DNA of 64,000 nt. Source: an uncultured Candidatus Saccharibacteria bacterium. Lineage in GTDB: Bacteria > Patescibacteriota > Saccharimonadia > Saccharimonadales > UBA10212. Shown one piece after another: positions 5,909-56,030 of the stretch. Position 1 is the first letter of the stretch; the number at the start of each line of letters is the position of its first letter. The notes under the pieces were generated by a model. That model saw only the letters and a program-made list of their open reading frames with translations, had not been told where the DNA came from and searched no databases. The stretch is taken from NCBI GenBank assembly GCA_965231085.1, contig OZ246413.1:344971-408970 (forward strand), given 5' to 3'. The translations under genes were made by a program, and so were the position numbers.

Positions 5909-6100
5909 TATCAGTCAATTATATCTTAAGCCGTAAACAGTGAACAGCCACACCTTGTGCATTTAGCCTGTTGATTATATAATTTCGGCATCTTTGTTGA
6001 GGTAAATGTTTCACACCTGAAGTTCGCTTCCAAAGATGTACATTTTGGCAAGCAGACAAAGACCAGATCGCAATCCGACCACAAGATTGGAGGATCCGAA

Positions 6101-6349
6101 ATGGCAGTAGACGTATTAACCGACCTGGAAGCACTGAAGCACAGGCGCCTGGCGGACAGCTACCGGCTCGGCAGCTGCACGGCCATCGTCGAGCGCGGCG
6201 AGTTCTGCGGGCGGCCCAATGTCCGTACCAGTGGGCAGGGTCACACCTGCGTGTCGGAGCACGCCTGCCAGGCGTGTGGCCGCGAACCAAGCGCTGCCGG
6301 CCCGAGGTGCAAGATGTGCCCGGCTTACGGTGAAGATCATGGCGAGTGA
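6101..6349 (+). CDS. Hypothetical small Cys-rich protein (82 aa), high-GC island
   Basis: RBS GGAGGA lies 6 nt upstream of the ATG and third-codon positions are strongly GC-biased. Seven Cys include CQAC and CKMC pairs (zinc-ribbon-like). The stop overlaps the next start (ATCATGGCGAGTGA). Confidence 0.45.
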   Translation: MAVDVLTDLEALKHRRLADSYRLGSCTAIVERGEFCGRPNVRTSGQGHTCVSEHACQACGREPSAAGPRCKMCPAYGEDHGE

Positions 6350-6806
6350 CTCAGACGCTCTCGCACGGGGGTTCGATCTCGAGCTCTTCGGTGGCACCGG
6401 TGGGCCTCGCCCCTACGCCAGCCCGGCCTTGGACACGTCCAAGTGGATTCCATGGCCGGCCGGCCCCGGGCTGTGCGACCGCTGTGGCAAGCATGCCGAG
6501 CAGCGAGCCAAGTCGATCATCTTCCATGATGATCGGGAGGAAGAGTACGTCGGCTACTGCCAGGCGTGCTGTGACCGCTTCAAGTGGGAAAAGGCACTCA
6601 GCCAACTCCCGACTGGGCCGATCGTCGTCTTCCCGGGCGATCAGCTACAGCTAGCCACCCTGGTCACGCTCCACGAACTCTTCATCGAGTCGAGGGGCTG
6701 GAAGCGGGTCAACCCTCCCGGCTACTGGAAGAACCCTCGGAGGTTCAGGCCGCCGCTGAAGCTTCACGATGCGGTGCGCTATGAGATCGAGACCGAGTCA
6801 GCCTAG
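6339..6806 (+). CDS. Hypothetical zinc-ribbon-like protein (155 aa; alternative start at 6219 gives 195 aa)
   Basis: Its start is translationally coupled to the upstream ORF and third positions are GC-rich. It carries CDRCGKH...CQACCDRF (CxxC...CxxCC). A perfect 11-bp stem hairpin follows at 6828-6860. Confidence 0.45.
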   Translation: MASDSDALARGFDLELFGGTGGPRPYASPALDTSKWIPWPAGPGLCDRCGKHAEQRAKSIIFHDDREEEYVGYCQACCDRFKWEKALSQLPTGPIVVFPGDQLQLATLVTLHELFIESRGWKRVNPPGYWKNPRRFRPPLKLHDAVRYEIETESA

Positions 6807-6827
6807 CTACACCGCTGACCACCCGAC

Positions 6828-6868
6828 GTAGAGACGAGTGAACATATGCCTCGTCTCTACTGTTTGCG
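6828..6868 (+). terminator. Intrinsic-terminator-like hairpin after the island's small ORF pair
   Basis: GTAGAGACGAG-tgaacatatgc-CTCGTCTCTAC is followed by TGTTTG. Confidence 0.45.
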
Positions 6869-6937
6869 AGAATAAGTCTGCTTGCCATTAACCTAATTAT
6901 AAAAAGAAACTCTCCATGTTGAGAGTTCATATCCTGT

Positions 6938-7282
6938 ATGGTGGAACTAAACGGAACACTCTCGAACCCTGAAGTACGGGTTGAGGTTCTGGAGCTTTTT
7001 GGCTTGGTTGAGCTGATTCTGACCAGAGGGCCCAGTAGCTCAGAACGTCCTGATCCACCCAAGCGGGCTGGAGAGATCAAGCAAACGGTGATCCATGTGC
7101 TCCAGATGGCCGAGAAGCCAATGAGGGTCATGGACATCCATAGAGCCTGCGAGGAGTACCTAGACAGACCAGTCAACCGGTCTACAGTCTCGGACTGCCT
7201 GATCAAGCACTCAAAGGGACAGAGGCAGTTGTTTGTAGCTACAAGTCGAGGGCTCTACTCGAAAATTGAATTCATCGCCTAA
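6938..7282 (+). CDS. Hypothetical small protein, winged-helix-like (114 aa)
   Basis: Intermediate GC. The helix-turn-wing pattern (IHVLQMAEKPMRVMDIHRACEEYLDRPVNRSTVSDCLIKHSKGQRQLFVATSRGLY) suggests a DNA-binding fold. No confident family assignment. Confidence 0.35.
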   Translation: MVELNGTLSNPEVRVEVLELFGLVELILTRGPSSSERPDPPKRAGEIKQTVIHVLQMAEKPMRVMDIHRACEEYLDRPVNRSTVSDCLIKHSKGQRQLFVATSRGLYSKIEFIA

Positions 7283-7401
7283 AACCACGAACTTGTTCAT
7301 AGTCTTGGGTGAAGCCCCAGGATTAACGTACCTGGGTATTTAAGACCTTGGTGGTCTTACGGCTCTTGCGAGCAATGTTCGAACAGCCGATAACGGAGAG
7401 C

Positions 7402-8079
7402 TCAGGCGCGGCTGGCAGCCACGTACAGCTTGACCTCATCGGCCTTCTCACGGTCGATCTTGCCAGTCTCGATGTAGTGGTCGAGGAGCTGGGAGAGCGT
7501 GAATGCTGAGATGACTCGGATGCCCTCCTCGTCGGTGAGCCACTCCGAGCCTCCCTGCTCACGATCGACCAGCACCAGGAGGTCCCGAACCTCCATGCCA
7601 GCTAGCTCAAGGATCGACACAGCCTCGATCTTGCTGTCGGCCTGGGTGATCAGGTCGTCGACCAGCAGAACCTTGCCGGGCAGATCCCAATTTCCTTCCA
7701 GAAGACCGGCGATCCGTCGTAGGTCTGCGGACTCTTCCTTGTAGAGCCGGATCTGATTCACCGGTGACCACGAGACGAGGCGCTTCATCAGCGCGTCGGC
7801 AAGCGGTTCACCGGCATTCGGGATGCCCGCCACGTACCGAAAGTCGAGACCTTTGTTCAAGTGGATCATCCCATAGAGCAGGTCAGCGATCTGTTCGATC
7901 AGCTCAGGTGTCAGCGGGCCCGGTTTCGGGTTGTCGGGAGTCCGCAGGTTGAGGTAGATCGGCGACAGTGGTGCATCCGGCTGGATCTCATGGAGCTTCA
8001 GTCGGAAAGCGCCGAACTTGATCGCGCCGACCTCGAAAAGCTGGTCGGCGACCGTAGCAAATCTTCCTTCGAGCAACAA
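7402..8079 (-). CDS. pyrE: Orotate phosphoribosyltransferase (type-I PRTase fold)
   Basis: 225 aa. The PRPP-binding motif VLLVDDLITQADSKIEA corresponds to VMLVDDVITAGTAI of E. coli PyrE, and LVLVDREQGG matches LISLDRQERG. The N-terminal KFGAFRLK block is also present. It has a TTG start immediately after the pyrF stop (operon). High GC. Confidence 0.7.
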   Translation of the reverse strand: MLLEGRFATVADQLFEVGAIKFGAFRLKLHEIQPDAPLSPIYLNLRTPDNPKPGPLTPELIEQIADLLYGMIHLNKGLDFRYVAGIPNAGEPLADALMKRLVSWSPVNQIRLYKEESADLRRIAGLLEGNWDLPGKVLLVDDLITQADSKIEAVSILELAGMEVRDLLVLVDREQGGSEWLTDEEGIRVISAFTLSQLLDHYIETGKIDREKADEVKLYVAASRA

Positions 8080-8087
8080 TCCTCCTT

Positions 8088-9068
8088 TCAGATCTGAGCC
8101 AGCACGATCGAGATGTCGTTGTGCATGGCCGAGGTTGCAGACCTCGCGGCTTCGGCGAAGTCCTCGCCATCACTGGCGAAGATGATGCCGCGAGAGCCGT
8201 TGATGATCATGCCCTGGTCGTGGCTGTTGACGCCCGCTCTCACGGACGCTTCCAGCTCCCCGCCTTGAGCCCCGATCCCGGGGATCAAGATAGGCATGTC
8301 GCCGACGATCTTCCGAACCTCAGCCAGTTCGGCAGGGTATGTCGCGCCAACTACGACAGCGCAGTTGCCGTTGTAGTTCCAGCCGCGCGTGATGTTCCTG
8401 GCCACGATCTGATACAGCGGCACTTCGCGCTCTTCGTAGTCGTAGAGCTTGCCCGGGTCGCCTTGCTCAGTGATCCGCAGATCCTGGAACTCGCCGGCAC
8501 CGGGGTTGCTTGTCCGAACGAGGACGATGACACCCTTGTCCATCTGGTCGAGGAACGGCTTCATCGCCTCCATACCGAGGTATGGATGCACCGTCACGGC
8601 GTCAGCGGCCTGAGCCGCCGCAACGTAGCCGGCGTTTGTGTTGCCGATATCGCCCCGCTTGTAGTCGAGGATGACCGGGACCTCGGGCGCTACATTGTGG
8701 ATGTAGTCGATCGTGTCTTTCAGGGCCACCAACCCCGAGAAGCCGAGCGCCTCGTAGAACGCCGAGTTCGGCTTGTACGCGCAGACGAGGTGCTTGGTCG
8801 CGTCGATGATCGCTTCGTTGAAGTCGAGAATCGTGTCGCCGAGGATCTCTGCCATGTCGCCATAGCTCAGACCCTCCGGCAGATCCTCTCCTCGCTGAAG
8901 AACCGCGAAGGCGGCCTGGGCGATCAGCATCTCGTCCACGCTGTACGACCCGCGGCTCTTGATGTGCCGAACGGGCAGCTTCTGGATGTCGCTGTCGAGA
9001 CCGACGCAGACGAACTTGCCCTCAGCCCAACGGGCTTGAAGCAAGTCCATGAAGTTGCGTTGTGACAT
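8088..9068 (-). CDS. pyrF: Orotidine 5'-phosphate decarboxylase, long (type 2, actinobacterial-like) form
   Basis: 326 aa with VGLDSD, DYKRGDIGNT (the D-x-K-x-x-D OMPdecase signature) and ILIPGIGAQGG. RBS GAGGAGA precedes the ATG. High GC. The plus-strand 314-aa ORF over the same DNA is a shadow. Confidence 0.8.
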   Translation of the reverse strand: MSQRNFMDLLQARWAEGKFVCVGLDSDIQKLPVRHIKSRGSYSVDEMLIAQAAFAVLQRGEDLPEGLSYGDMAEILGDTILDFNEAIIDATKHLVCAYKPNSAFYEALGFSGLVALKDTIDYIHNVAPEVPVILDYKRGDIGNTNAGYVAAAQAADAVTVHPYLGMEAMKPFLDQMDKGVIVLVRTSNPGAGEFQDLRITEQGDPGKLYDYEEREVPLYQIVARNITRGWNYNGNCAVVVGATYPAELAEVRKIVGDMPILIPGIGAQGGELEASVRAGVNSHDQGMIINGSRGIIFASDGEDFAEAARSATSAMHNDISIVLAQI

Positions 9069-9101
9069 ATTTCCGCTTCTCCTCTCGTAGTAGTCTGGCT
9101 T

Positions 9102-9153
9102 TTCCAGACCGGATTACTGCCTTCCACGCAGCAAGCACTAATCCAGTCTGGAA
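9102..9153. repeat. Long-range inverted repeat (13-nt arms, 26-nt spacer) in the pyrF 5' leader, with an overlapping alternative local hairpin (9093-9109)
   Basis: TTCCAGACCGGAT ... ATCCAGTCTGGAA. GTCTGG-ctttt-CCAGAC overlaps arm 1, giving mutually exclusive structures. Confidence 0.45.
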
Positions 9154-9233
9154 GAACCCGAAGAGAACTAACAATAAGAACCTGCTTGTCAAAGAATCAT
9201 CAATGGAGCTAAGTGCTCAACAAAGATGACGAG

Positions 9234-9262
9234 ATTATACAATAATCGGCCGGAATACTCAA
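9234..9262 (-). promoter_or_regulatory. Candidate sigma70 promoter for pyrF-pyrE (extended -10)
   Basis: On the minus strand: TTGAGT, a 17-nt spacer, then TGTATAAT. Located about 160 nt upstream of the pyrF ATG. Sequence-only prediction. Confidence 0.35.
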
Positions 9263-9326
9263 CTATTGGTGGGTGTTGTAAGTAACGCTTTTCAGTAAAC
9301 TAACTGCGAATTCTCGAAGACATGAA

Positions 9327-9353
9327 AAATGACCTCGTCTACTGAGGTCATTT
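9327..9353 (-). terminator. Terminator hairpin downstream of tRNA-Leu
   Basis: Perfect 10-bp inverted repeat AAATGACCTC-gtctact-GAGGTCATTT. On the minus strand it is followed by UUUUUCAUGUCUU. Confidence 0.5.
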
Positions 9354-9383
9354 AACTTCTGATAACGATAACCATTACCATTA

Positions 9384-9468
9384 TGGTGGGGACGAAAGGA
9401 CTTGAACCTTCATGGGTTGCCCCGCTAGCTCCTAAGGCTAGTGCGTCTGCCAATTTCGCCACGTCCCC
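9384..9468 (-). tRNA. tRNA-Leu (anticodon UAG), CCA encoded
   Basis: Cloverleaf: acceptor GGGGACG/CGTCCCC, 3-bp D stem, anticodon stem CTAGC/GCTAG with loop CTTAGGA (anticodon TAG), long 13-nt variable arm, T loop TTCAAGT, 3' ACCA. Its 3' end faces the GC island. Confidence 0.85.
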
Positions 9469-9635
9469 TCGTTGAAGCAAAAGTTTCTACATTTCGCTTC
9501 CAGACACATCCGAAAGCTCAATCTTAATCTTTGCTTCTCCTCTCATTTTTGCAAAAACCTGCACAGGTGTTTTCACAAAAATGGTAATCGCACAGGGGTT
9601 ATTTTACCTTAAATCCTGCTATTTTTAAAGGGCCC

Positions 9636-12056
9636 TTATTGCTTATCTAGATTTAGCTTTAATTTGCCAACTGCCGCTTCAGCCATAAGCGCTAAGTTCC
9701 GTTTTACGTCTTCCATTTTGTTCAGCCCATAGCCTAGCGAATAGCCTGAATATTCGTCTAGGATTTCATCCATTATTTCAATTCTTTGTGCTAGATCGTA
9801 TTGACCAATAATCTGATGCATAATTATGCCCATTTGGGTTTCGTCAATAATTAGGTCAGCCTCCGAGTCTCGGGCGATATCTCTGCCGACGCGTCCTGCT
9901 AGCCGAAGCAATCTTAGATTGTAAATCGATTGATCTCTTTGCCACTCTTCCCAGCTATCAGCAGGATTTTCGTATTGTCTCGCCCGAGCAAGATAAGTCG
10001 CCGCTCTGTCTTTTGTGTAGGCTCTAGGTATTTTTGGCGCAATGAAGCCACCAGAATCGGAGGCTATATTCCTAAGCTGTGTAAGGCTACCAAGTCTAGC
10101 CAGGGCTTGAGATTCAAGCTGTCTGACTCTTTCTCTAGTTAGGTCCAGCTCATAACCGACCTGGTCGAGTGTATATGGTTCCTTGCCATCAAAACCAAAC
10201 CTTTGTCTTATAATTATCGCCTCTCTTTCAGGCAAGGAATCCACAACTGAGGCTATCTCTTGGGTTAACATCTCTTCTTCTGCTATTTCCTCGGTAGTCT
10301 GATGGTCAGGATTACGAGCATCTACAACCTGCAATCCCAGGCCCGATGGGTAGCCATCAAAACCCCATAATGCTAGTCTGGCCATGTCTTTAGCGCTACC
10401 ATGCCTGGCAAGATTTTTACGTTCAATAAAGTCTTCGATATCTTCTACCTCGGGGACGACTCGTTGCTCCCGAACGTACCGGCGCATAAAGCGGCCGATT
10501 TCCCGGGCGGTAGTGGCTGGAAAGCCTATTGAGCTTCCTGGTACTTCTGGTAGGTCCCACTCTTTTTCCAAAATTTGGTTATACCGCCTGATATCACGAC
10601 TATGAGTATCAGTGCGCTTAGAGTTGTATTTTACTCTAAGTTGTTTTAGTAAATAGGCATCATTGGCTAGAAGGTTAAGCCATAACTCGGAATTAATAAT
10701 CCGCTCAAGATTTGACCGCTTTGAAGTAGAGCCACCATTACCGACCCGCTCTGATCCAATTACCCGTCCGAGATGAACCGATTTTTCATCCATCACGTCC
10801 AGGCTAGTGTACTGATATTTGTTGGGTGAAACATCCATAAAATCAACGATAATCGACTCTAAGTTACCCGGTTTTTTACGAAGTACCCTACCTAGTTCTT
10901 GGGTCTTTCGAACACGCGAGGTAGTTGGGCACGTAGCGATTAAAAAGCTAGCTCGGCTGCTATCCCAGCCTTCGGCTATGGCTTTTACATATGTAAGAAC
11001 GTCAATTTGCCCGTTTTCAAAGGCCTGTAATATTCTTTGATTTTCTTCTTGGCTCAAGAAACTGCCGACCGCTCGGGCTCTAATAAATTTTTTAGTACCG
11101 TCTGCAAGCGTTATAAAACTGCCGTCCAGCTCATCGGCTAGAGACCGAGCGTGAACAGAATTCTCCCCCGGTACACAGCTAATAATTCCCTGGCGGCCAT
11201 CGGCTACAAAATTCCGGGCAAACTCTAGAGCACTGTCGTTTCGAGCCTTGAGGTCTATTAGTTTTTCAAGTTCCCGTTGCGTGTATTCGTCTGCATATTC
11301 GTCTAAGTCAGGGATTTCGGCATCGGTGGTATAAAGCAAGCATGTTACCGGCGCAACTAAATCGTTTTCGATAGCTTCTTTGAGTGATAATTCATGAATT
11401 GGTGTTTCAAAAATTTCGTTGACACTTTTTCCAACGCGATATTTTGGAGTGGCAGTAAAACCAATTTTTGTGGCTTTTGGAGATATGCTAATTAAATTAC
11501 GCTTTGTCACTGCCCCAAGACTCTTATGTGCCTCGTCAGCCAAAATAACGTCAAACTCTCCCAGCTCACCAGTCTGAACAAAGTTATTCATTCCAGCGTA
11601 GGTCGCAACGACTACCTTGTCGGTTTTTGTAGCTTTTGATCCACCATAATGCTTGCCTACGTCTGCTGGGCTAAGTCTTTGGGCAAATTTTGCCAAGCCT
11701 TTATCTTCAATATCGCCGGACAGCTGGCTAACCTGAGTTCGCATGTCTGCTAAAACCAAAACTCTTAAGCCGCTTCCGGCAAATATTTCGGCTAGTTTGG
11801 CAATTAGATATGTTTTTCCGGTTGATGTTGGTAGCTCAACATATCCCCGGTTATAACCCATAGCAAGGGCTTCTGAAATATCAAAAAAAACCTCCTGTTG
11901 ATGAGGGTATGCCTCGTCCTGATCATCAAGCCAATGTTCACTTCTGAAGTATTGGTCTAAGGCAAGAGCGGGGCCTTCTAGATTTTCTTCTTGCGAGAAA
12001 ACTCGTACGCCAGATTCAAACGGGGACGAGTTTGCTCGCTCTATAGCCGTATTCAC
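9636..12056 (-). CDS. SF2 (DEAH-type) helicase fused to a sigma-70 region 4 domain
   Basis: 806 aa. The N-terminus has helicase motifs I (PTSTGKTY), II (ILADEAHK), III (FTATP) and VI (QELGRVLR). Residues about 600-655 read LPEREAIIIRQRFGFDGKEPYTLDQVGYELDLTRERVRQLESQALARLG, closely matching sigma-70 region 4.2 (compare E. coli RpoD [48 protein letters not shown]). The C-terminal roughly 150 aa are unassigned. Confidence 0.75.
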   Translation of the reverse strand: MNTAIERANSSPFESGVRVFSQEENLEGPALALDQYFRSEHWLDDQDEAYPHQQEVFFDISEALAMGYNRGYVELPTSTGKTYLIAKLAEIFAGSGLRVLVLADMRTQVSQLSGDIEDKGLAKFAQRLSPADVGKHYGGSKATKTDKVVVATYAGMNNFVQTGELGEFDVILADEAHKSLGAVTKRNLISISPKATKIGFTATPKYRVGKSVNEIFETPIHELSLKEAIENDLVAPVTCLLYTTDAEIPDLDEYADEYTQRELEKLIDLKARNDSALEFARNFVADGRQGIISCVPGENSVHARSLADELDGSFITLADGTKKFIRARAVGSFLSQEENQRILQAFENGQIDVLTYVKAIAEGWDSSRASFLIATCPTTSRVRKTQELGRVLRKKPGNLESIIVDFMDVSPNKYQYTSLDVMDEKSVHLGRVIGSERVGNGGSTSKRSNLERIINSELWLNLLANDAYLLKQLRVKYNSKRTDTHSRDIRRYNQILEKEWDLPEVPGSSIGFPATTAREIGRFMRRYVREQRVVPEVEDIEDFIERKNLARHGSAKDMARLALWGFDGYPSGLGLQVVDARNPDHQTTEEIAEEEMLTQEIASVVDSLPEREAIIIRQRFGFDGKEPYTLDQVGYELDLTRERVRQLESQALARLGSLTQLRNIASDSGGFIAPKIPRAYTKDRAATYLARARQYENPADSWEEWQRDQSIYNLRLLRLAGRVGRDIARDSEADLIIDETQMGIIMHQIIGQYDLAQRIEIMDEILDEYSGYSLGYGLNKMEDVKRNLALMAEAAVGKLKLNLDKQ

Positions 12057-12105
12057 GAGACATATTTTAATATAATACTAACTTTCTGTCAATTTAAGCT
12101 AGGGG

Positions 12106-13203: not shown

Positions 13204-13231
13204 ATTATATCAGATTGCTTCGATTTGTCAA
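13204..13231 (-). promoter_or_regulatory. Near-consensus sigma70 promoter driving the high-GC secreted-protein gene
   Basis: On the minus strand: TTGACA, a 16-nt spacer, then TATAAT (plus-strand tgtcaa 13226-13231 and attata 13204-13209). A roughly 90-nt leader reaches the ATG at 13117. Confidence 0.5.
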
Positions 13232-55535: not shown

Positions 55536-55542
55536 TGTAGAA

Positions 55543-55615
55543 CTGCGCGCGCGGGGTTCGAACCCGCGTTACCTGCACCGTTGGCAGGGGTTCTAGGCCA
55601 CTGAACTAGCGCGCA
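55543..55615 (-). tRNA. tRNA-Arg (anticodon ACG) with atypical A33 and G37
   Basis: Acceptor TGCGCGC/GCGCGCA, D arm GTTC...GAAC, anticodon stem CCTGC/GCAGG with loop CAACGGT, T loop TTCGAAC. No CCA is encoded. It directly abuts the upstream tRNA. Confidence 0.65.
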
Positions 55616-55688
55616 AGCGGCTGAGAGGGCTCGAACCTCCGACCTCCCTCGATCATGAGGGCGCTCTAGCCTACTGAGCTACAGCCGC
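55616..55688 (-). tRNA. tRNA with an abnormal 6-nt anticodon loop (CAU or GAU family; Met/Ile-like body)
   Basis: The body closely resembles tRNA-Ile(GAU) (D arm TAGCTCAGTAGGCTAGAGC; AGGTCGGAGGTTCGAGCCCTCTC). The anticodon region CCCTC-ATGATC-GAGGG is one nt short of the canonical 5-7-5 arrangement. Confidence 0.5.
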
Positions 55689-55740
55689 GGGCAAATCTTG
55701 GTGCATATGCTGCAACTACAATTTCTACCCAGAACTACTA

Positions 55741-55814
55741 AGTCGGTGATGGGGCTCGAACCCACGACCTCCTGCATGGCAAGCAGGCGCTCTAGCCAAC
55801 TGAGCTACACCGAC
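55741..55814 (-). tRNA. tRNA-Gly (anticodon GCC)
   Basis: Acceptor GTCGGTG/CACCGAC, anticodon stem CCTGC/GCAGG with loop TTGCCAT, T loop TTCGAGC. No CCA is encoded. Confidence 0.8.
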
Positions 55815-55865
55815 CGGCAAATCTTTTGGAGCTACTACTAGCTACGACAAATTGTTGCCACTTAA

Positions 55866-56030
55866 TGGGCGTGGGAGGAATCGAACCTCCGACCTCTAGT
55901 TTCTCTATCTGACGTTTCAATTTGATGTCTTGAAACTTCCCCGAGCGTCCCCGGGACTCTCAATCATCTTTACTTTATCAGCAAAACAGAGAAAAACAAC
56001 TAGCACTCTAACCAACTGAGCTACACACCC
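55866..56030 (-). tRNA. tRNA gene interrupted by a roughly 90-nt insertion in the anticodon arm (putative intron or disrupted tRNA); identity undetermined
   Basis: The 5' half GGGTGTGTAGCTCAGTTGGTTAGAGTG-CTAGT and the 3' half ACTAG-AGGTC-GGAGGTTCGATTCCTCC-CACGCCC-A form a canonical acceptor/D/T/anticodon-stem cloverleaf. Between them lie 98 nt that fold into helices of their own (UUCUCUG...UAGAGAA; GUUUCAA-9nt-UUGAAAC; CCCG...CGGG). Confidence 0.55.

Follow-up and report, generated by a model that had tools for sequence, protein, structure and literature searches.

A helicase gene fused to sigma-70 region 4 in Saccharibacteria

Results

Gene and domain organization

In a 64,000-nucleotide stretch of DNA from an uncultured Candidatus Saccharibacteria bacterium (assembly GCA_965231085.1, contig OZ246413.1, forward-strand positions 344,971 to 408,970; hereafter the window), one gene encodes a motor of helicase superfamily 2 (SF2) joined to a sigma-70 region 4 domain. 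We refer to it as the helicase-sigma gene. It had been picked out by a model working from the letters and a list of their open reading frames (ORFs), here called the sequence-only reading, which placed it at 9636–12056. The ORF there is real and lies on the minus strand; a plus-strand reading was ruled out because that frame is full of stops. The minus strand holds a single stop-free frame of 806 codons, and the coordinates include the stop codon. The gene, the parts of its protein (by amino acid, aa) and a promoter-like site just upstream are listed below in window coordinates.

9636..12056, minus strand: whole coding sequence of the helicase-sigma gene; GTG start, 806 aa plus stop codon
10812..11912, minus strand: SF2 motor core, aa 49–415; two RecA-like lobes of the HsdR/XPB/RadD type
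10542..10739, minus strand: family-specific helical region, aa 440–505; motif YLxxILxxxL...YExxLxKEGLPxE
10362..10541, minus strand: probable sigma region 3.0/3.1-like three-helix unit, aa 506–565
10296..10361, minus strand: disordered linker at the position of sigma region 3.2, aa 566–587; from predicted local distance difference test (pLDDT) scores, consensus and alignment register
10077..10295, minus strand: sigma region 4 (4.1 and 4.2), aa 588–660, with recognition helix T640-R-E-R-V-R-Q-L-E648; from Pfam, PDB sequence matches, pLDDT and conservation
9639..10076, minus strand: C-terminal helical tail, aa 661–806, variable
12064..12092, minus strand: promoter-like site TTGACA-17-TAAAAT, assigned by an 11/12 consensus match only, in the 49-nt gap after rsmD

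The N-terminal part carries a complete SF2 motor. All of the helicase strings quoted in the sequence-only reading are found in the translation: ELPTSTGKTY (Walker A), ILADEAH, GFTATP and TQELGRVLR. Pfam places ResIII at residues 49–205 (E = 7e-22) and Helicase_C at 324–394 (E = 6e-8), and SWI2_SNF2 (PF18766) is also matched. Across 36 aligned sequences the Walker A residues G80-K81, the DEAH box (174–177), T203 of motif III and Q386, G389, R390 and R393 of motif VI are invariant, and the ATPase is therefore under selection. Walker A, DExH, motif III, the motif VI arginines and two RecA-like lobes, the features that define an SF2 helicase or translocase, are thus all present. The structures nearest to the motor core are the double-stranded-DNA translocases HsdR, Rad25/XPB, RadD and SauUSI, and the motor is most likely a double-stranded-DNA translocase, an SF2 ATPase of the HsdR/XPB/RadD type.

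The second recognizable part is sigma region 4 (sigma4). The stretch that had been singled out, LPEREAIIIRQRFGFDGKEPYTLDQVGYELDLTRERVRQLESQALARLG, corresponds to residues 608–656, and Pfam assigns Sigma70_r4 to residues 606–655 (E = 3.9e-14), a score of 52.3 bits where the gathering cutoff is 24.1. In NCBIfam, residues 584–658 fall on the C-terminal part of the RpoD, RpoS and SigA models. When residues 587–671 were searched against PDB sequences, the best 60 of 69 matches were all sigma factors, mostly primary ones, led by residues 455–515 of M. tuberculosis SigA (E = 1.3e-13). Judged by these searches, the match is specific to sigma region 4, far beyond chance, as opposed to a generic helix-turn-helix (HTH), just as had been proposed. 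In Pfam, NCBIfam, PDB sequence and profile searches alike, sigma4 is most similar to primary sigma factors; every protein returned by a profile search with the sigma module was a fragment bearing the name 'primary sigma factor' and no taxonomy.

An AlphaFold2 model built from the 36-sequence alignment (mean pLDDT 75.8) divides the protein into five parts. The two-lobe motor (residues about 30–415) is modelled confidently and is followed by a helical middle region (443–565), a disordered stretch (569–586, pLDDT below 50), a confident sigma4 domain (588–660, pLDDT 83–91) and a helical tail of low confidence (661–806). The front of the middle region, aa 440–505, matched no known family, and a hidden Markov model (HMM) of it finds members of this family only. 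The tail is missing from relatives of ~655 aa (P0003–P0008 and P0010) and differs in other relatives. A linker of about 200 aa and a tail of about 150 aa had been left unassigned; both exist, at 416–587 and 661–806, but about half of the linker is probably derived from a sigma factor.

Extent of the sigma-derived half

With a profile of residues 505–662, primary sigma factors could be aligned collinearly and in one piece from region 3.0 through 3.2 and 4.1 to 4.2; residues 208–362 of B. subtilis SigA were aligned in this way with E = 1.6e-29. The region 3.0 end of these alignments reads 'TIRIPVHMVETINKL..LGREPTPEEIAEDM' on the sigma side. Over aa 506–565, the string 'SIGFPattareigrfmrryvreqrvvPEvEDIedfi' pairs with 'IRIPVHMVETINKL..LGREPTPEEIAEDM' of sigma. 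The distance from the conserved proline within 'REPTPEE' to the 'L..RE' of helix 4.1 is nearly equal to that in sigma factors, and the linker (aa 566–587) closes with a conserved D-P motif ahead of helix 4.1. The region 3 part is strongly diverged from primary sigmas. A profile-profile test of family residues 505–588 against four region 3 segments of SigA, drawn from the collinear-alignment output, gave P = 8.2e-5, a probability of 61% and the expected register. We therefore judge region 3 homology of aa ~506–565 to be probable, not proven. The sigma part had been described as region 4.2. That region is present, but the sigma-derived part is larger: region 4.1 is clearly there, and regions 3.0/3.1 with a 3.2-like linker probably are.

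Sigma region 2 (sigma2) is absent by the same kinds of search. Pfam did not find Sigma70_r2 at E ≤ 1, and a profile of residues 440–590 gave no sigma2 among its PDB or Pfam matches. Of the hallmarks of the sigma-70 family, the protein has region 4 (4.1 and the 4.2 HTH) and lacks region 2; a role as a conventional sigma factor is therefore excluded. In functional terms, JGI mislabels this family as 'RNA polymerase sigma factor', and we flag such database labels as misleading. In terms of domain order, the protein is an SF2 motor in place of regions 1.1–2 of a primary (group 1) sigma factor, followed by the C-terminal half of sigma, of which region 3 is the probable part.

We then mapped the family alignment (n = 36) onto E. 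coli sigma70, with an offset of 57 residues derived from the aligned ranges and with the established sigma70 numbering and residue roles. Fourteen sigma4 positions were considered (L551, R554, E555, R562, F563, G564, T583, R584, E585, R586, R588, Q589, E591 and L598), which in sigma70 contact the -35 element or DNA backbone or pack against the flap. Over all 14, the E. coli residue is kept in 19–34 of the 36 members. In the recognition helix, T583 is retained in 26, R584 in 20, E585 in 24, R586 in 31, R588 in 27, Q589 in 30 and E591 in 29; elsewhere R554 and E555 are each retained in 28, R562 and F563 (as F or Y) in 30, and G564 and L598 in 31. The -35 recognition helix TRERVRQ.E is thus conserved across the family, the RFG motif of 4.1 is kept, and many members also have the LRHPSR tail of primary sigmas. 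The recognition-helix residues are solvent-exposed and unneeded for folding; that they have been retained speaks for continued binding of a sigma4-type ligand, -35-like DNA.

Family and distribution

Contigs of two different sequencing runs encode the identical protein (P0001), as does a 669-kb contig of an NCBI assembly. A first homologue search gave 37 relatives with 33–85% identity, most of them with both helicase and Sigma70_r4 Pfam domains, and 36 of these (28–85% identity) align over the motor, the middle region and sigma4. A profile was searched exhaustively against 1.84 billion cluster representatives, with 1108 proteins at E ≤ 1e-30. In local HMM searches of 167 family-level proteins, 89 combined motor and sigma4, 9 had the middle domain of the family but only a decayed sigma4, and the remaining 69 had neither. 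The architecture thus recurs in 89 distinct proteins, with identities as low as about 30%, and in the relatives, as in the window, it is one fused gene, as had been supposed.

In a neighbour-joining tree of motor cores only, one split sets 92 of 94 proteins that bear sigma4 or the middle domain apart from all 58 others. This topology is consistent with one ancient fusion that was then maintained by vertical descent. A search for homologues had been suggested to define phyletic spread, and the genome scan places most members in metagenome-assembled genomes (MAGs) labelled Saccharibacteria, Saccharimonadia or Saccharimonadales. A few are labelled Patescibacteria, Parcubacteria or Nomurabacteria, and two carry labels from outside the candidate phyla radiation (CPR), which may be binning errors. 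The helicase-sigma protein is lineage-specific, mainly to Saccharibacteria. The nearest helicases without the fusion (L015:1028-3400, L016:1409-3691 and L017:7701-10214) share 34–39% identity in the core.

In the supplementary annotation of the cultured S. epibionticum ML1 (PMC10633639), the slot between rsmD and tRNA-Leu holds lnt and no helicase-sigma gene. The two genes annotated there as 'DEAD/DEAH box helicase' are RecD-like and AddA/UvrD-like (PMC10633639). The absence was judged from annotation and the syntenic slot, together with two of the three PF04545 entries in that supplement. The same source lists SEML1_0294, annotated 'RpoS', with an N-terminal Sigma70_r4 (27–72) and a HARE-type HTH; it was scored essential in transposon sequencing (PMC10633639) and is another non-canonical sigma4 protein in Saccharibacteria. 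Saccharibacteria are amenable to natural transformation (PMC10633639).

Two further arrangements were seen in MAGs. In one Saccharimonadales MAG, a 567-aa ORF (L008:10562-12265, plus strand) carries the middle-domain motif (FEKKLSQEGMPEELPDN) and Sigma70_r4 without a helicase; its N-terminus is of low complexity. It lies directly downstream of a fusion gene (L008:7413-10502) and has the appearance of a paralogue that lacks the helicase and sits beside the full-length copy in tandem. The other arrangement was seen in two Peribacteria MAGs, where the gene for a distant ResIII-type helicase stands head-to-head with a full-length rpoD-like sigma gene, about 20–30 bp apart:

L025:5888-7600, minus strand, and L025:7632-10778, plus strand: head-to-head helicase and rpoD-like pair
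L030:6077-7639, minus strand, and L030:7659-11024, plus strand: head-to-head helicase and rpoD-like pair

These Peribacteria helicases share 23–24% identity with the motor core. They were rejected as family members, being without the middle domain and sigma4, and are distant relatives only. The pairing is missing at four other Peribacteria loci and may be coincidence.

Comparison with known systems

Primary sigma-70 factors (RpoD/SigA) are collinear with residues about 505–660 over regions 3.0–4.2 and share the TRERVRQIE helix, RFG and often LRHPSR with the protein described here. They differ from it in having regions 1.1, 1.2 and 2; the helicase-sigma protein lacks these and hence lacks an element for -10 recognition and melting and the main core-binding element.

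RapA (HepA), Mfd and HelD are ATPases that bind bacterial RNA polymerase to recycle or displace it, and each of these motors uses dedicated docking domains of its own. RapA docks by its N-terminal domains and Mfd by an RNA polymerase-interacting domain that binds the beta subunit, HelD is a superfamily 1 enzyme, and none of them is known to carry sigma domains. Their tethering modules are not homologous to that of the helicase-sigma protein, in which Pfam and NCBIfam gave no SNF2-rel_dom, Mfd or RapA family match, RNA polymerase-binding modules included.

Among the translocases, XPB/Rad25 resembles the motor structurally no better than HsdR or RadD do, HsdR scoring as well or better, and the family-level model ERCC3_RAD25_C reaches 16 bits against a cutoff of 27. 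For RadD, the NCBIfam model heli_RadD_YejH covers the core only and, at 44.3 bits, falls short of its cutoff of 720, the C-terminal half being sigma-derived instead. The zinc finger and SSB-binding tail of RadD and the damage-recognition and thumb elements of XPB were not detected, the XPB RED and thumb elements not having been searched for individually. Compared with HsdR and SauUSI, the protein has no HSDR_N or nuclease match in Pfam and no HsdM or HsdS partners, and its tail is sigma-derived; the HsdR model TIGR00348 scores 32.5 bits against 284.6, and the neighbours are rsmD, recG, pyrF and tRNA-Leu.

Two defence proteins also show partial likeness. Like the protein described here, the sigma-like MzaA of the MZA anti-phage system is large and non-canonical and ends in sigma region 4, but the match is limited to residues 586–655 (63.6 bits against a cutoff of 800) and there are no MzaB–E partner genes. 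The PbeA match (65.7 bits) is confined to the motor core, dnd_restrict_1 reaches 53.8 of the 600 bits required, and Pbe/Dnd partner genes were not found nearby. By description, the protein can also be likened to split or partial sigmas (T4 gp55 and gp33 with the gp45 clamp; Bacillus SigO-RsoA), in which sigma functions are divided among modules and a DNA-tracking protein is coupled to a flap-binding module. Those systems consist of separate small proteins, with no fused ATPase.

Genomic context

The window is an ordinary chromosomal stretch with genes for HisRS, pyrE/pyrF, rsmD, recG, MurT/GatD, TyrRS and a penicillin-binding protein, and further for RadA, ClpB/C, DnaE, GatA/B, UvrB and PheT. 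The context of the helicase-sigma gene is chromosomal housekeeping and not a defence island. The gene order TyrRS..RecG-RsmD-gene..HisRS-trigger factor is kept in relatives at 44–48% identity and the recG-rsmD synteny is gone at about 39%; no operon partner is conserved, and none recurs beside the more distant members. PADLOC found no defence partners among 9 neighbouring ORFs, and no genuine sigma factor was found elsewhere in the 64-kb window. A tRNA-Leu(TAG) lies downstream of the gene at 9384–9468 on the minus strand.

By consensus match, this genome contains canonical TTGACA/TATAAT-like sites, one of them directly upstream of the helicase-sigma gene. That site (12064–12092) stops 8 nt upstream of the GTG start, and its use would yield a leaderless or nearly leaderless mRNA. 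A second putative promoter, just downstream of recG at 13204–13231 (minus strand), is a perfect 12/12 match with a TG extension.

Discussion

Both domains of the helicase-sigma protein and polymerase-associated SF2 motors were already known; the fusion appears to be new. A full-text literature search for the architecture returned no relevant description of a helicase-sigma fusion, and the source databases give the family only generic automatic names, consistent with the earlier impression that no described family has this layout. Recruitment to promoters or polymerase, or competition with sigma, as the sequence-only reading put forward, would be compatible with the conserved -35 recognition helix.

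We favour, at a probability of roughly 0.4, a remodeller tethered to polymerase or promoters, a functional analogue of RapA, HelD or Mfd that would dock through sigma contacts. The sigma3-sigma4 module would serve as a targeting device that brings the motor to the beta-flap tip, where sigma4 docks on core RNA polymerase, to -35-type promoter DNA, or to both. ATP-driven translocation could then remodel promoter complexes or those of RNA polymerase; polymerase that has stalled or carries no sigma, for instance, might be released or recycled. The retention of helix 4.1, of the region 3-like unit in its order and spacing, and, in many members, of LRHPSR is what would be expected if contacts with the polymerase core still matter.

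Several observations weigh on the other side. The tie to RNA polymerase is one that we infer from sequence. In the family consensus, conservation does not extend to the region 3.0 residues responsible for reading the extended -10 element. The gene appears to be absent from S. epibionticum ML1, going by the annotation in the supplement (PMC10633639), and the family is therefore not universal in the transcription machinery of the lineage. Finally, sister helicases carry other C-terminal modules at the same position: repeated HTH_17-like units, winged-helix HTH arrays, IF2_N-like repeats and double-stranded-RNA-binding domains. These include the L015–L017 loci named above and P0112, P0115, P0116, P0119, P0134 and P0140, and the helicase clade seems to swap its targeting tails. 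Because these relatives bear other nucleic-acid-binding tails, the sigma tail may likewise be simply a swappable nucleic-acid-binding module for which no polymerase is needed.

The strongest competitor takes up this last point. The protein might be a sequence-targeted DNA translocase that works independently of RNA polymerase, its sigma4 (and sigma3-like) HTHs reading only -35-like (TTGACA-type) DNA and so anchoring or loading the motor, for instance for clearing proteins from promoters, resolving R-loops or repair near transcription units. We regard this as possible, if on the unlikely side. Isolated sigma4 binds -35 DNA unaided, solved sigma4-DNA structures (for example 1ku7) are among the PDB sequence matches, and the recognition helix is conserved. 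The generic HTH arrays and double-stranded-RNA-binding domains of the sister helicases fit as well, as does the activity of the RadD, XPB and HsdR relatives in DNA repair or translocation; the neighbouring repair genes recG and uvrB add weak support. A plain HTH would suffice for such a role, yet helix 4.1, the region 3-like unit, the linker at the 3.2 position and often LRHPSR have been kept, and more distant members no longer have recG as a syntenic neighbour.

A more radical proposal is that the motor replaces sigma region 2 and melts the -10 region while sigma3-sigma4 hold polymerase and the -35 element. Such an ATP-dependent initiation factor, which would be the bacterial equivalent of TFIIH's XPB or a parallel to sigma54 with its AAA+ activator, strikes us as improbable. 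The motor is N-terminal to region 3, exactly the place of sigma2 in the domain order, XPB/Rad25 as seen in pre-initiation complexes ranks with the nearest structures, and all ATPase motifs are conserved. But sigma2 supplies the main affinity for the beta-prime clamp helices, and the protein contains no sigma2-like core-binding element. The likeness to XPB is no better than that to HsdR or RadD, XPB-specific Pfam and NCBIfam models stay below threshold, and S. epibionticum appears to lack the gene or not to need it, as far as its published supplement indicates (PMC10633639).

The retained beta-flap-binding sigma parts and the missing initiation part could also suit a sigma competitor or anti-sigma-like regulator, in which sigma3-sigma4 would block SigA at the flap and protrusion sites and the ATPase would control release. 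We consider this very improbable, since it leaves a large motor with invariant catalytic residues unexplained and known anti-sigma factors bind sigma, not core. We give still less credence to a defence or restriction-type enzyme akin to the type I/IV restriction motors, PbeA or the MZA system, although the best NCBIfam match is MzaA, PADLOC reports matches to PbeA, to type IV and type I restriction motors and to MzaA, and HsdR and SauUSI are among the nearest structures. Membership in a defence system was rejected, as the PADLOC and NCBIfam matches are partial and partner genes are lacking. That two genes were merged by a frameshift, mis-assembly or bad gene call is ruled out for practical purposes by the stop-free 806-codon frame, the identical protein from different runs and the conservation of the architecture in 89 distinct proteins.

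To our knowledge, almost nothing is known experimentally about transcription control in Saccharibacteria and the CPR, and under either of the two leading readings the family offers a testable entry point into it. If the sigma half still docks on polymerase, as in the tethered-remodeller reading that we prefer, it would represent a new way of attaching a remodeller to RNA polymerase and a natural experiment on the capacities of sigma3-sigma4 in the absence of sigma2. Should it read DNA only, a DNA motor would be using the DNA-reading head of a sigma factor as a label that addresses it to promoters. Sigma-70-type initiation is regarded as ATP-independent; a motor that substitutes for sigma2 in promoter opening would be an ATP-driven sigma factor, categorically new and TFIIH-like, in an ultrasmall episymbiotic lineage, an outcome we think would be surprising.

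Additional observations in the window

The G+C content of the window is 0.58 at 6001–8000 and 0.53 at 8001–10000, against about 0.44 elsewhere. In this G+C-rich segment, both strands carry long ORFs that overlap around the pyrE-like and pyrF genes, and unassigned ORFs lie at 5919–7282. A tRNA cluster occupies 55542–56030 on the minus strand. There, ARAGORN calls a tRNA with a two-base, undetermined anticodon at 55616–55688, and Rfam gives a 165-nt tRNA match at 55866–56030 that has no ARAGORN call and is possibly an intron-containing tRNA.

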